The translations under genes were made by a program, and so were the position numbers. From NCBI GenBank assembly GCA_023957375.1, contig JAMLHB010000002.1:124812-188811 (forward strand): 64,000 nt of DNA. Reading direction: 5' to 3'. Below are positions 38,356 through 47,552 of the stretch, piece by piece. Every line of letters begins with the position of its first letter. Position 1 is the stretch's first letter. Source of the DNA: Flavobacteriales bacterium (GTDB taxonomy: Bacteria > Bacteroidota > Bacteroidia > Flavobacteriales_F > PHOS-HE28). The notes under the pieces were generated by a model that worked only from the letters and a program-made list of their open reading frames with translations, was not told the origin of the DNA and ran no database searches.

Positions 38356-40269
38356 ATGGACATCACCCACATCCGCACCAAAGCCGACTACGACGAAGCC
38401 TACCGCCAAAGCGTGCAGGACCCCGAAGCCTTTTGGGCCGCACAGGCCGAAACCTTCACCTGGCGCAAGAAGTGGGACAAGGTGCTGGAGTGGGACTTCA
38501 AAAAGCCCGAGGTGAAGTGGTTCATCGGCGGCAAGCTCAACATCACCGAGAACTGCTTGGACCGCCACCTGGAAAAGCGCGGCAACAAGCTCGCGCTGAT
38601 CTGGGAGCCCAACGATCCCAGCGAGCGCTTCATCCGCTACACCTACCGCGAACTGCACGAGCGCGTGTGCCAGTACGCCAACGTGCTCAAGCGCAACGGC
38701 GCGAAGAAGGGCGACCGCATCTGCATCTACATGCCGATGATCCCCGAGCTCACCATCGCCGTGCTGGCCTGCGCGCGCATCGGAGCCATCCACTCGGTGG
38801 TCTTCGCAGGCTTCAGCGCCAAGAGCATCGCCGACCGAGTGAACGACGCCCAATGCAGCATGGTGCTCACCAGCGACGGACTGCACCGCGGCCACAAGCA
38901 GATCCCCGTGAAACGCGTGGTGGACGAGGCCTTGGAGGAATGCCCCAGCGTGAAGAAGGTGATCGTTACCGACCGCCTCGGCTGGGCCGTGGACATGCAG
39001 GAAGGCCGCGACGTGTGGCTGCACGAGGAGTTGAAACACGTGGACAAGCACTGCCCCGCCGAGGAGATGGACGCCGAGGACCCGCTCTTCATCCTCTACA
39101 CCAGCGGCAGCACCGGCAAGCCCAAGGGCGTGGTGCATACCTGCGGCGGCTACATGGTTTTTTGCGACTACACCTTCCGCAACGTGTTCCAATACGAGGA
39201 AAGCGACATCTACTGGTGTACCGCCGACATCGGCTGGGTAACCGGCCACAGCTACATCATCTACGGGCCGCTCTGCGCCGGGGCCACCACGCTGATGTTC
39301 GAGGGCGTGCCCACCTTCCCCGACGCGGGCCGCTTCTGGCAGGTGATCGACAAGCACGGCGTGAACATCTTCTACACCGCGCCCACCGCCATCCGCAGCC
39401 TCATGGCCCACGGCCTGGACCACGTGCTGGCCTACTCGCTGGATTCACTCAAGGTGCTCGGCAGCGTGGGCGAGCCCATCAACGCCGAAGCATGGCAGTG
39501 GTACAAACTGCACGTGGGCAAGAACCGCTGCCCCATTGTTGACACATGGTGGCAAACGGAAACGGCGGGCATCATGATCAGCTCCCTCGCAGGCGTCACC
39601 GATGAAAAGCCCAGCCACGCCGCCTACCCGCTGCCCGGCGTGCAACCCGTGCTGCTCACCGCCGACGGCAAGGAGATCACCGAAAACGAAGTGGAAGGCA
39701 TGCTCTGCATGAAGTTCCCTTGGCCCGGCATCCTGCGCACCACTTGGGGCGACCCCGAGCGCTACAAGCAGACCTACTTCAGCAGCTACCCCGGCCACTA
39801 CTTCAGCGGCGACGGCGCCAAGCGCGATGCCCAGGGCCGCTGGCGCGTGATCGGCCGCGTGGACGACGTGATCAACGTAAGCGGCCACCGCTTCGGCACC
39901 GCCGAGATAGAAAGCGCCATCAACCTCAGCGAGCGCGTGGTGGAAAGCGCCGTGGTGGGCTACCCGCACGACATCAAGGGCCAAGGCATCTACGCCTACG
40001 TCATCACCGCCGAGCCGCTGGACCTCACCGACAAGCAGGCCGTGGACCGCATCACCGGCGAGATCGTGGAATCCGTGGTGGCCAGCATCGGCCGCATCGC
40101 CAAGCCCGACAAGATCCAATTCGTAAGCGGCCTGCCGAAAACCCGCAGCGGCAAGATCATGCGGAGGATCCTGCGCAAGATCGCCGAGGGCGAGATGAGC
40201 AACCTGGGGGATACGACGACATTGCTGGATCCCGGTGTGGTGGAGGAGATCAAGGGGGGGAGGGTGTGA
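38356..40269 (+). CDS. acs: Acetyl-CoA synthetase
   Basis: [37 protein letters not shown]. Confidence 0.98.
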   Translation: MDITHIRTKADYDEAYRQSVQDPEAFWAAQAETFTWRKKWDKVLEWDFKKPEVKWFIGGKLNITENCLDRHLEKRGNKLALIWEPNDPSERFIRYTYRELHERVCQYANVLKRNGAKKGDRICIYMPMIPELTIAVLACARIGAIHSVVFAGFSAKSIADRVNDAQCSMVLTSDGLHRGHKQIPVKRVVDEALEECPSVKKVIVTDRLGWAVDMQEGRDVWLHEELKHVDKHCPAEEMDAEDPLFILYTSGSTGKPKGVVHTCGGYMVFCDYTFRNVFQYEESDIYWCTADIGWVTGHSYIIYGPLCAGATTLMFEGVPTFPDAGRFWQVIDKHGVNIFYTAPTAIRSLMAHGLDHVLAYSLDSLKVLGSVGEPINAEAWQWYKLHVGKNRCPIVDTWWQTETAGIMISSLAGVTDEKPSHAAYPLPGVQPVLLTADGKEITENEVEGMLCMKFPWPGILRTTWGDPERYKQTYFSSYPGHYFSGDGAKRDAQGRWRVIGRVDDVINVSGHRFGTAEIESAINLSERVVESAVVGYPHDIKGQGIYAYVITAEPLDLTDKQAVDRITGEIVESVVASIGRIAKPDKIQFVSGLPKTRSGKIMRRILRKIAEGEMSNLGDTTTLLDPGVVEEIKGGRV

Positions 40270-40310
40270 GTACAACCGCTCGATGGAAGCCCGTTTGTTA
40301 TCTTTACATC

Positions 40311-40544
40311 ATGGAGGTCAAGCTCAACATACCCTTCGAACAACTGCTACGGGCCTTGTCACAATTGACGCCCTTGCAGCGGCGGAAAGCAAAGGCCGTG
40401 CTTGAACGGAAGTCGGCGGGTAAGACCTCGGAAGCTGGAGAGAACTTGGCTGAGCTGCTGTTGCACGGACCTGTATTTTCCGAGGAGCAACTGCTGCGCA
40501 TGGAGGAAACCCGCAAGGCTTTCGCGACATGGCGGGACCGTTAG
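40311..40544 (+). CDS. Putative antitoxin (77 aa) of the PIN toxin
   Basis: MEVKLNIPFEQLL...LLLHGPVFSEEQ...W; overlaps the PIN gene; second copy at 46110. Confidence 0.8.
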   Translation: MEVKLNIPFEQLLRALSQLTPLQRRKAKAVLERKSAGKTSEAGENLAELLLHGPVFSEEQLLRMEETRKAFATWRDR

Positions 40545-40924
40545 TGCTGGTGGACACGTCCGTGCTGATCGACTATTTCCGGAGGAAGGACAAGGGCCGG
40601 ACCTTGCTCCATCAACTGGCCGAGGACGGTTGCACCTTGAAACTTTCCGTGATCACGGAATACGAGGTATACGTTGGTGCCACCACGGATCAGCTCGCAT
40701 ATTGGGACCAGGTGCTGGAACATATTGAGGTGTTGCCCCTCGGATCCCGGGAAGTGCGCCGGGCCGCAATGATCCAGGCCAAATTGAAACGGCAACGAAT
40801 GCAAGTGGCACTCCCCGATCTATTCATAGCCGCCACGGCGTTGGAGGCGGACCTGCCGGTAGCCACGTTGAACAGGAAACACTTCGTCGCATTGCCAGGG
40901 ATCCGGCTATTCCCAAAGGATTGA
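40529..40924 (+). CDS. vapC: VapC PIN-domain toxin
   Basis: LVDTSVLIDY, ITEYE, DLFIAATA, TLNRKHF. Confidence 0.92.
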   Translation: MAGPLVLVDTSVLIDYFRRKDKGRTLLHQLAEDGCTLKLSVITEYEVYVGATTDQLAYWDQVLEHIEVLPLGSREVRRAAMIQAKLKRQRMQVALPDLFIAATALEADLPVATLNRKHFVALPGIRLFPKD

Positions 40925-40941
40925 GATAGTAATGCCTTATG

Positions 40942-41122
40942 GGCCGCATCGCCAAGCCGGACAAGATCCAGTTCGTAAGCGGCCTGCCGAAAACGCGCTC
41001 CGGCAAGATCATGCGCCGCATCCTGCGCAAGATCGCCGAGGGCGAAATGAGCAACCTGGGGGATACGACCACGCTGTTGGATCCCGGGGTGGTGGAGGAG
41101 ATCATGGGGGGGGAGGGTGTGA
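40942..41122 (+). repeat. acs 3'-end copy 1
   Basis: Encodes [22 protein letters not shown]...EEI. Versus 40090-40269 it has 12 synonymous codon changes, one K>M change and +1 G. Confidence 0.97.
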
Positions 41123-41180
41123 GGAATGTGCATCAGCATGGAGGCGTGGATTGAAGAGCCAATATGCTATCTTTGAAATC

Positions 41181-46343: not shown

Positions 46344-46383
46344 TGCTTGTTGACACGTCCGTGCTGATCGACTATTTCAACGC

Positions 46384-46719
46384 TCATTCCCCCAAACGCT
46401 CCTCCGCGATCACACGTAACATCGGCAGATCGATCTGAACCACCTCCCAAACGATTTTGTCGTCCACGTTGGCGTAGGAGTGGATCAGCCGGTTGCGCAT
46501 GCCCACGATGGAGCGCGCACAATCCAATTGCAGTCCGGGTTCCTCCTTCCTCAATCTGTTCACCGCCTCGCCGATCACGGCGAGTTCGCGTTCCACCGCC
46601 CTTTTAGTCTTCAGGTCGCGGACGTATTCGTTGAGCGACCCGACACCTTCCAGGAAACTTTCGACCTCGCCGATGGCCGTGAGGATGTCAGACCAGAATT
46701 TGGCGCTTGGACCCATCAT
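46384..46719 (-). CDS. HEPN (DUF86/HepT) toxin
   Basis: AVERELAVIGEA, GMRNRLIHSY (Rx4H), IVWEV. Confidence 0.92.
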   Translation of the reverse strand: MMGPSAKFWSDILTAIGEVESFLEGVGSLNEYVRDLKTKRAVERELAVIGEAVNRLRKEEPGLQLDCARSIVGMRNRLIHSYANVDDKIVWEVVQIDLPMLRVIAEERLGE

Positions 46720-47014
46720 AGATCAGCATCTTGGTCCGCTCAATCTCAGCGCGCAAGTAAGGGTTGCGCAGGCTGCTTTCCGTAAGCAGGTCCACCGGTC
46801 GTTGAAACAAATCCTCCAATCCGTTCCATACATTGATCAGCATGCGCCCAGCCTTCTCTTCGGGCGCATCCACTTCCACCAGTACGTCCACGTCGCTTTC
46901 CGGTCCAAAGGAGCCGCGCACACTGCTGCCGAAGGCGTACAACCGGCTCACGTTGTTCGCGGCCAACAAGGCCCCGAACGCGGCCCGGTCCCTATTGATC
47001 AATTCCTTCAGCAT
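46688..47014 (-). CDS. Minimal nucleotidyltransferase (MntA-type antitoxin)
   Basis: FGSSVRGSFGPESDVDV, RPVDL, NPYL; TACCTTTG at 47020-47027. Confidence 0.9.
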   Translation of the reverse strand: MLKELINRDRAAFGALLAANNVSRLYAFGSSVRGSFGPESDVDVLVEVDAPEEKAGRMLINVWNGLEDLFQRPVDLLTESSLRNPYLRAEIERTKMLIYDGSKRQILV

Positions 47015-47132
47015 ACCTGCAAAGGTAGTGGACCCGTGATACCCTGTCACCCCACTCTGGCGCGAGCGTCCTCCGCTCATGCCTGAACCAACCCTATTGC
47101 GGCAGCATGCGAGCGATGGCACTCGCGGTACG

Positions 47133-47276
47133 ACCGATCGTTCATCGAAGAACTGACCACATTCCTGGAAGAAGCCGGCATCGCGTCCGATCCGAAATAC
47201 CTGCCTTGATGTGCGACCCCTTCAGGGTCGTGCCCACCCGCTGATCATGCAACGCTGTGCGACCCCTTCGGGGTCT
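47133..47276 (+). repeat. Diverged duplicate of the transposase 3' end plus its two downstream REPs (45573-45717)
   Basis: RSFIEELTTFLEEAGIASDPKYLP* then tgtgcgaccccttcagggtcg...atgcaacgctgtgcgaccccttcggggtc. Confidence 0.9.
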
Positions 47277-47552
47277 GGAATGCGGCATGGTCTCGCTTTC
47301 CCCCCACTCTGGCGCGACTATACACCTGCGCCGACGGATCACTGAAGTGTACTGAGCGGCGCGGCAGGAGAACCAGCTGGTGCGAAAGACTTGCGTGGCT
47401 ATGGGCCACATTGGGTTCCCCCAACTCTTGCGCGAGCGTCCACGCTCGTGCGCCTTGACCGTAGCTGGTTCCCAATGCCACAAGCGTGGACGCTCTTGGC
47501 ATTTCAGGGCAGTTCACCTACGCCGCGCCACCCCCCGCCTACCTTTGCCACC

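Follow-up and report, generated by a model that had tools for sequence, protein, structure and literature searches.

Introduction

Insertion with long target duplication has been described for restriction-modification (R-M) genes in Helicobacter, Haemophilus, Neisseria and other bacteria (PMC2853133; restated in PMC3874152). In the cases described there, the repeats measured 46 to about 420 bp and some of the flanking repeats overlapped the 3′ end of a gene (PMC2853133). Furuta, Abe and Kobayashi (2010) linked the process with breakage of DNA, and they suggested that insertion, amplification through the repeats and release form a cycle (PMC2853133). Here we report on an array of small cassettes, mostly of toxin–antitoxin (TA) type, behind acs, the gene of acetate–CoA ligase, in a 64,000-nt stretch of a Flavobacteriales genome (assembly GCA_023957375.1, contig JAMLHB010000002.1). 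This stretch, hereafter the window, covers C2:124812-188811 of a 3.83-Mb genome in four contigs. Insertion with long target duplication of R-M genes was reportedly described by Nobusato et al. in 2000.

That process appears to be the closest precedent for the acs array. Both involve small selfish units without a mobility gene of their own, bounded by direct repeats that duplicate the target. As set out in the source, a case has a repeat longer than 30 bp, an insert shorter than 20 kb without a mobile-element gene, and an empty target in a relative (PMC2853133). The repeats here measured 117–184 nt. Cassettes 1–3 (0.5–3.0 kb) contain no mobile-element gene, but cassette 4 contains a Y1 transposase and falls outside the definition. 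An empty target was found in 17 of 40 acs loci and, at the locus of a molybdopterin oxidoreductase, in genome G094. The cargo here (PIN, ParE, HepT/MNT and Y1 transposase) differs from the R-M genes of that source, and the repeats, near-identical in its cases, are here diverged alleles with a synonymous bias. Moreover, the right end here always lies at the stop codon of a conserved gene, and the units are serial and genus-wide, with up to four orphan copies at acs and about seven fragments in genome G079.

Other known systems share some of these features. Integrons are ordered arrays of small cassettes with IntI, attI and attC. The acs array resembles them in its ordered small TA and defence cassettes, the newest apparently beside the anchor, but has no IntI, attI or attC; its repeat is host coding sequence, and many genes act as anchors. 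Orphan C-terminal toxin/immunity arrays lie downstream of rhs and cdiA, and they too are serial displaced 3′ fragments with a conserved stretch, built via incoming alleles. However, the displaced tips there encode different toxins, whereas here the same Acs C-terminus recurs and the variable cargo is separate. Tandem islands at gene 3′ ends are also formed by accretion of integrative and conjugative elements and cis-mobilizable elements. Tycheposons are integrase-mediated islands at gene 3′ ends that show tandem accretion (bioRxiv 10.1101/2020.12.28.424599). As in such integrase islands, the repeat at acs is the 3′ end of the target, a replacement 3′ end is supplied so that the gene is restored (acs is intact), the displaced end lies downstream, and serial partial copies stand between cargo. 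Unlike them, no examined cassette contained an integrase, the targets are unrelated and have no common core, and cassettes are as small as 0.4–0.7 kb. Campbell insertion-duplication of non-replicating DNA with a 3′ gene fragment is a laboratory tool, and it predicts exactly the polarity seen here: an intact gene upstream, then cargo, then a truncated orphan downstream. To our knowledge, natural recurrent Campbell integration has not been described as a route of cassette gain, and our literature search found no account of arrays anchored on acs or of TA cassettes that show long target duplication.

Results

Orphan copies of the acs 3′ end

The interval between acs and menB appears to consist of four small cassettes stacked at the 3′ end of acs (Table 1). 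Each insertion kept acs complete and left a copy of its tail, 117–184 nt long and running to the stop codon, downstream of the cargo. The acs product scored 940 bits against TIGR02188, for which the NCBIfam cut-off is 725. BLAST of the acs tail against the whole genome returned the intrinsic tail (t0) and four orphan copies (t1–t4), all on the plus strand, and no copy outside these five anywhere in the 3.83 Mb. The orphans were 86–93% identical to t0, with E-values from 1e-34 to 7e-73; the BLAST match of t3 extended over 44862-45037 (86%), and that of t4 covered the last 117–118 nt. By alignment, t1, t2 and t3 start within about 5 nt of ...GCCGCATCGCCAAG, and the right ends of all tail copies lie at the acs stop codon or at most 1–2 nt from it.

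Relative to t0, the differences at codon positions 1/2/3 numbered 4/2/9 in t1, 1/1/10 in t2, 8/3/13 in t3 and 5/0/9 in t4. They sum to 18/6/41, with third positions dominant. The changed codons were 11 synonymous and one non-synonymous in t2, and 15 and four in t3. Because the differences are mostly synonymous, the orphan tails look like alleles that diverged while functional and not like products of decay. The best-preserved orphan was t2, which is also the nearest to the intrinsic tails of nearly all relatives, while a 1-nt insertion shifts the frame of t1. Two tail sequence types alternate along the array; among other sites, they differ at the serine codon of the PKTRSGK motif (AGC/AGT versus TCC) and in CGGAGG versus CGCCGC. 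We take the lysine of this motif to be the acetylated one.

These results bear on a preliminary description of the same DNA. Its four downstream tail copies were recovered by repeat search and genome BLAST within a few nt of the positions it gave, its near-common start of three copies holds for t1–t3, and its mostly synonymous differences are seen in the counts above. It had further held that distal copies are more decayed. This is true of t3, which is degraded at its 5′ end, and of t4, which is truncated, but t2 is closer to acs in sequence than the frameshifted t1. The cargo blocks that it listed (VapBC, two antitoxin–RelE pairs, low-GC genes, a transposase flanked by repetitive extragenic palindromic (REP) sequences, an orphan antitoxin and HepT–MNT) were all found.

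Variation of the acs locus in the genus

A 179-nt tail query matched 118 of 131 genomes of the genus, and two or more matches were found in 32 of the 131; these matches are not copy numbers, and contig breaks or, as in L013 and L041, a paralogue upstream of acs account for a few of them. From genomes with matches we fetched 40 acs loci, enriched for multiple matches. An orphan tail of at least 70 nt was present in 21 of these loci and absent from 17, in which the target is uninterrupted. The acs-tail copies measured 117–184 nt and the cargo segments about 0.5–5.5 kb.

Cassette types directly behind acs recur across species in other orders and combinations, such as acs–antitoxin–RelE–tail–vapB in L006, acs–vapBC–tail in L030, acs–X–vapBC–tail in L008 and acs–Y1–partial tail–vapB–PIN in L032. 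The four closest relatives, whose acs bodies were about 92–93% identical where compared, have the order acs–Y1 transposase–(partial tail)–...–menB or a rearranged form of it. Since these relatives have only the Y1 cassette, the three proximal cassettes of the window would have been added later beside acs, between the acs body and the current t3. Number, order and content of the cassettes therefore vary among relatives, and this is the variation for which the preliminary description had asked. Identity of the tail compared with that of the acs body falls at the tail in close relatives, a signal too noisy for dating or ordering the insertions.

We then scanned against Pfam all ORFs of at least 60 aa on both strands (n = 150) from 23 cassettes in the loci of 20 relatives; L038, with 57 ORFs and an assembly of 8% contamination, was left out. 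Twelve families were found: PIN (10), ParE (6), Bro-N (4), Y1_Tnp (2), DUF6364 (2) and seven with one match each, namely two HNH families, two nucleotidyltransferase families, Fib_succ_major, Gp49 and CRF-BP_N. None of the 150 ORFs matched an integrase, a resolvase or a DDE transposase, and the only recombinase-type family was the Y1 transposase. Small cassette genes were traced by targeted tblastn together with a codon-usage gene caller, which misses atypical cargo genes. Clustering of ORFs of at least 50 aa from the first 20 loci was dropped, as spurious antisense ORFs of high GC merged the clusters.

In a class-wide protein search outside the genus, 9 of 243 genomes had two or more matches; among the 243 are two unpublished genomes, G219 and G295, each of which had one match. 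The short-open-frame matches all came from this genus among the matches listed. This limitation to the genus fits a spread bounded by sequence similarity.

Some loci showed particular arrangements. A second acs-like gene lies directly upstream of acs in L013 (G029), where it is 39% identical, and in L041 (G128), and it explains the extra weak tail match in both. Within 10 kb of acs, menB was absent from 19 more distant acs-containing loci and present only in the closest relatives. L043 (G098) has, downstream of menB at 4734-5289 (oriented) and 3.3 kb from acs, an antitoxin–RelE pair with the first 56 nt of an acs tail behind it; menB may lie inside an old array in the G098 clade. In G094, menB and the next conserved block are in swapped order. 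In the stretch 255-1584 of L012 (G034), at a contig start, an ORF which by eye resembles a DNA methyltransferase ends 8 nt ahead of a truncated acs tail.

Exchange of acs with its cassette

Genomes G013 (L006) and G010 (L007) had an identity of 97.9% in the 434 nt compared upstream of acs, and of 96.7% in 3.7 kb downstream of it. Across acs itself, however, their identity was only 84.6%, and the two carry different cassettes. The acs and antitoxin–RelE genes of G013 were instead 93–94% identical to those of the window, and the return to G010-like sequence takes place within the first ~15 nt of the orphan tail. Because near-identical flanks bracket a divergent acs with different cassettes, acs and its cassette were evidently exchanged as one block by recombination, with the orphan tail as the right-hand arm.

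The same arrangement behind other genes

A self-BLAST of the genome was made for direct repeats of 60–400 nt with at least 80% identity, lying 0.3–12 kb apart, and each repeat copy was assigned by its position relative to the 2313 called genes that encode 150 aa or more. Tail-type duplicates, with one copy ending at the stop codon and the other intergenic, were found for 21 genes including acs, and the orphan was downstream of the gene in 20 of these 21. Head-type duplicates were found for 11 genes, and in seven of these the orphan was upstream only. Both polarities are as insertion-duplication predicts. In the examples inspected, similarity ended at the stop codon or within a few bases of it, and GC content was lower in the cargo than in the gene. 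The host genes are unrelated and include those of a class II aminoacyl-tRNA synthetase, a molybdopterin oxidoreductase, an NAD-dependent epimerase, an M20 peptidase, an NA37 nucleoid protein and a glyoxalase-fold enzyme. Eight of ten ORFs scanned from small cassettes matched PIN, PIN_2, HicA, HTH_3, ParE, HepT, an AbiEii-like nucleotidyltransferase or Fic. Comparison of intrinsic with orphan tails outside acs gave 70/55/184 differences by codon position, and 137 synonymous against 78 non-synonymous codons. The pattern across the genome and the genus is that of mostly type II TA DNA behind a conserved gene, followed by an orphan 3′ end of that gene.

Among the 97 genomes in which the oxidoreductase locus was traced, all at least 90% complete, many had extra tail copies. 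G079 (L057) had about seven and G080 (L058) four partial oxidoreductase tails over 5–7 kb, exceeding the acs array of the window. The site is empty in G094; comparison of the empty-site alleles of G094 and G096 with the intrinsic and orphan tails was not decisive. Accretion had at first been thought to be anchored on acs. This does not hold, as about 20 other genes show the same tail duplication and the oxidoreductase gene carries arrays in other species.

The gene for a DrmD-like SNF2 helicase (DISARM; 7818-10871, minus strand; PADLOC DrmD, 696 bits) is a head-type counterpart of the acs tails. In the region 7818-12928, its first ~66 nt are duplicated 2 kb upstream (10836-10901 versus 12864-12928, 89%), and the cargo between the two head copies includes a PIN/VapC-like ORF at 12193-12567.

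Recombinases, attC sites and cassette boundaries

PF00589 had six matches in the genome and none in the window, the nearest being C2:21006 and C2:310309, and PF00239 (serine recombinase) had no match anywhere in the genome. Ku was also searched for and not found. Folded as single-stranded DNA and compared with shuffles, four tails gave z-scores of 0.03, 0.30, 0.00 and −1.43, so that no attC-like folding was seen by this measure, which uses no attC covariance model. The cassette boundaries are acs coding sequence, and the only inverted repeats are REP-like and lie away from the boundaries. The 21 sharp left boundaries of different host genes had no motif in common. An explanation by XerCD/dif-type sites or pdif modules was rejected, as the repeats are unrelated gene tails without a shared 28-bp site.

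The left boundary of the orphan acs tails varies with the type of cargo. It was mapped with a 239-nt query that reaches 60 nt upstream of the repeat (q, query position). For VapBC cassettes the tail begins at about q46-57, and for most antitoxin–RelE cassettes at q56-63, with three more of the latter at q77-102. The tails of Bro-N cassettes begin at q85-95, those of Y1-transposase cassettes at q123-133. The sequence of the cargo-to-tail junction is conserved within each cassette type, and the boundary and flank of t4 are also present in the relative L032. Because the left boundary at acs depends on the cargo, these data point to several independent origins, each of which would have set its own junction. 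The variety of the boundaries with cargo and the lack of a common motif across genes also argue against a site-specific enzyme.

Of the preliminary description, the lack of an integrase and of attC sites in the window agrees with the absence of PF00589 and PF00239 matches there and with tails that fold like shuffled sequence. Its single insertion point has to be given up: there is not one fixed site, and the boundary classes differ with cargo.

Cargo and neighbouring features of the window

Table 1. Positions of acs, its tail copies, the cassette genes and menB in the window
Feature	Position	Strand	Evidence or remark
acs, acetate–CoA ligase, 637 aa, intact	38356-40269	+	ORF; Pfam AMP-binding, ACAS_N, AMP-binding_C; TIGR02188
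t0, intrinsic acs tail, final 179 nt	40092-40270	+	Repeat search, BLAST
Small ORF, VapB-like antitoxin from position only	40311-40544	+	Upstream of PIN gene, overlapping it
PIN-domain (VapC-like) toxin, cassette 1	40529-40924	+	PF01850, E 4.4e-16
t1, orphan acs tail	40944-41123	+	91% to t0; 1-nt insertion near end
Small ORF before ParE/RelE gene, antitoxin from position only	41181-41393	+	
ParE/RelE-family toxin, cassette 2	41390-41647	+	PF05016, E 6e-9
t2, orphan acs tail	41653-41831	+	93% to t0; open frame retained
Low-GC block, cassette 3	42012-44265		GC profile; ORFs 42089-42922 (+), 43010-43696 (-), 43908-44126 (-)
Second antitoxin–ParE/RelE pair	44388-44854	+	Toxin 44597-44854
t3, orphan acs tail	44860-45038	+	86% to t0; 5′ end degraded
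IS200-like Y1 (HUH) transposase, cassette 4	45206-45586	+	PF01797, E 2e-22; NF033573, 63 bits (cut-off 55)
t4, orphan acs tail, last ~118 nt only	45747-45864	+	87%; 1-nt insertion before stop
Orphan VapB-like ORF without PIN partner	46110-46343	+	Repeat, 87% to 40267-40566
HepT, TA pair with MNT	46384-46719	-	PF01934, E 1.5e-21
MNT nucleotidyltransferase	46688-47122	-	PF01909, E 4e-13; PADLOC PDC-S09
menB, 1,4-dihydroxy-2-naphthoyl-CoA synthase	47553-48422	+	TIGR01929, 405 bits, above cut-off

The toxins beside small partner genes pass the Pfam cut-offs, and the arrangement is predicted to be that of type II TA systems. The three antitoxin ORFs had no match in Pfam, NCBIfam or PADLOC and bear that label by position or overlap only. 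The antitoxin ORF of cassette 1 was 86% identical to its orphan copy before HepT, and the PIN toxin of this cassette had 91% amino acid identity with that of the L008 cassette. The small ORF of cassette 2 is conserved along with RelE in L006, L009, L013, L026 and L029.

GC content was 40–45% at 42000-44000, against 61–64% in acs. The three ORFs of this 2.25-kb low-GC block matched no Pfam, NCBIfam or PADLOC family significantly. The 11 nt that follow the stop of t2 are the same as those that follow the stop of t1, and the sequences diverge thereafter. The second antitoxin–RelE pair together with t3 is colinear with 41152-41831 at 87% (repeat spacing 3207); the two pairs had 92–93% amino acid identity, the toxins 92%. 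It looks as if the low-GC block had entered the leader of an antitoxin–RelE cassette.

A Flavo-1 RNA-like match (41909-42023, minus strand; E 3.8e-4) lies just after t2, in the leader of cassette 3. Its 34 bits are below the gathering score of 42, and Rfam gave nothing but this single sub-threshold match in 37500-49000. The sequence 41832-42011 is conserved behind an acs tail in L008 and L042, and metagenome contigs that contain it diverge at 42011/42012.

REP-like palindromes at 45103-45136 and 45641-45722 bracket the Y1 transposase as a unit of 45103-45722. The REP_Tyr_transpos model NF047646 gave this transposase only 19 bits (cut-off 80), whereas the IS200 model passes. In the distal array, one REP-like family is found at 44256-44343, 46023-46061 and 47420-47458, and a second at 45103-45136, 45641-45722 and 47201-47281.

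The first conserved gene beyond the array is menB. An ISAs1-family transposase follows at 48656-49762 (371 bits); copies of this element with 100% identity are present at three places in the genome (C2:173467, C2:735951, C2:1069802), and here it stands where the relative G098 has an antitoxin–RelE pair. Both the Y1 transposase and ISAs1 were considered as makers of the tails and rejected, since each is confined to a single cassette or lies beyond the array. On the other side of the locus, between ispE and acs, a 59-nt unit is found in two identical tandem copies plus an incomplete third at 38165-38324.

Discussion

Our analysis suggests that the cassettes were stacked by homologous recombination through the conserved tail, after one illegitimate join for each cassette type. 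We give this reading a probability of roughly 55%. A rare illegitimate join would have linked the end of a cargo fragment to an internal point m of a host gene, and the product would be a unit consisting of the tail from m to the stop codon plus the cargo. Such a unit would be bracketed by conserved coding homology and could be moved by the homologous recombination of the host. It might be excised as a circle and re-integrate in Campbell style by a single crossover; alternatively, on linear DNA, the body of the donor gene would pair in register while the orphan tail pairs with the intrinsic tail of the recipient. By either route, tail and cargo would be added exactly at m, the gene would stay intact and older tails would be pushed downstream, and a dedicated recombinase would be unnecessary. 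The right boundary would lie at the stop codon because homology between donor and recipient ends there. TA cargo is probably over-represented through its resistance to loss, as loss would be penalised.

This mechanism would account for the polarity, the allelic tails, the stacking with the newest unit beside the gene, the absence of any recombinase or motif, and the restriction to the genus. The illegitimate origin, the dependence on RecA and the form of the transferred DNA are what we infer from these patterns. Linear donor DNA in a shifted register explains the same structures as circles do. Of the integron-like accretion first proposed, the array, the lack of an integrase, the intact acs, the downstream tails and the variable cassettes stand, but its anchoring on acs and its single site do not. 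We consider it doubtful, though worth stating, that these TA and defence cassettes form a class of mobile elements which carry a fragment of a conserved host gene as a portable attachment site, depend solely on host recombination for excision, passage between related species and re-insertion, and build integron-like arrays behind dozens of core genes throughout the genus with no recombinase of their own.

Several observations speak against stacking by recombination through the tail. Cassette divergence roughly tracks that of the acs body (88% versus 86% in L008, 93% versus 94% in L006), and much of the cassette sharing could be vertical. Some orphans are nearly identical to the tail of their own species (99% in L009, 96% in L030, 95% in L007), which fits in-situ duplication or gene conversion equally well. 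VapBC, antitoxin–RelE, a distant PIN and the unknown cargo of L031 share nearly the same left boundary (q54-61). The only mapped crossover also lies at that edge, where an enzyme with a site preference would have given the same result; this sharing could come from exchange of cargo between pre-existing tails or from a preferred site. Tails of ~180 nt with 80–93% identity would be a poor substrate for RecA. The genome has ComEC and DprA, but the two say little on competence, as they register in the genomes of non-competent controls as well. The roughly 20 loci per genome, a count made within this lineage alone, may not be unusual. Against Campbell circles in particular, the sole transfer that could be reconstructed, between G013 and G010, replaced the whole of acs plus cassette.

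The public reads, too, gave no circle, junction read or within-population polymorphism; they consist of short Logan contigs that never span the array. Of 24 sequencing runs found, 20 hold 0.20–0.33 of the sampled words, and all are in the form of Logan contigs, from metagenomes of wastewater, sludge, bioreactors, soil or wetland. In the four runs compared with the window, the low-GC block had almost no cover. Contig joints in these four cluster at the REP-like palindromes (about 44266-44288, 46026-46058 and 47416-47451), most of them at the first of the two REP-like families. We regard these as repeat-driven contig ends or as other loci, with no bearing on circles.

The points on divergence lead to the most serious alternative, in-situ long target duplication, in which cargo entered once by break repair, the copies diverged vertically and the arrays grew by local unequal crossing-over. 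The flanking repeats of published R-M cases are near-identical, for example 417/423 (PMC2853133, Table 3). Orphans 95–99.5% identical to the tail of their own species, including that at locus C1:1440403, and the parallel divergence of cassettes and acs would be expected from such a history. The window itself is harder to explain in this way. Its tails are 7–14% diverged, and of the changed codons only 1 of 12 in t2 and 4 of 19 in t3 are non-synonymous, whereas by our own rough expectation a neutral orphan compared with a constrained gene should give more than half. Its two antitoxin–RelE–tail units are only 87% identical, its tail types alternate, and block import is seen in G013 versus G010. 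We consider in-situ duplication unlikely.

A dedicated recombinase or other enzyme, encoded elsewhere and acting in trans, could instead recognise cassette ends and place the cassettes at the 3′ ends of genes, in the manner of integrons or of integrase-less elements that are mobilised in cis. The dominant q54-61 boundary common to unrelated cargo, with the one crossover at that edge, the many loci per genome and the concentration of arrays in this genus would all suit such an enzyme. Yet the genome has only six tyrosine-recombinase matches and no serine recombinase, and no recombinase was found in the 23 cassettes of relatives. The 21 boundaries in unrelated genes without a common motif, the other boundary classes at acs and the missing hairpin signal in the tails also tell against it, and we judge this explanation quite improbable. 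That the array is a chimera of strain variants made in assembly is hardly credible. The assembly does look metagenome-derived (4 contigs, 1.68% contamination), and independent reads have not confirmed the array. But the copies are not collapsed repeats, since they differ by 7–14% and the flanks of each are unique; this architecture is also found in independent assemblies of other species, including the one- and few-contig genomes G061, G079 and G102; and some 20 further loci obey the same rule of polarity.

Long target duplication has been known since 2000, and its mechanism is given as not established (PMC2853133). Compared with the R-M precedent, the TA cargo, the allelic repeats, the strict anchoring at gene ends and the genus-wide serial arrays set this case apart. 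The genus offers many informative cases, with some 20 loci in each genome, 131 genomes, serial arrays and recognisable cassette types whose junctions are cargo-specific, and comparative genomics together with simple genetics could tell whether break repair, Campbell integration or register-shifted transformation is at work. Orphan tails of this kind are easily mis-annotated as pseudogenes or small ORFs. If it is true that recombination alone stacks cassettes, this would help to explain integrase-free hot spots and defence islands next to core genes.

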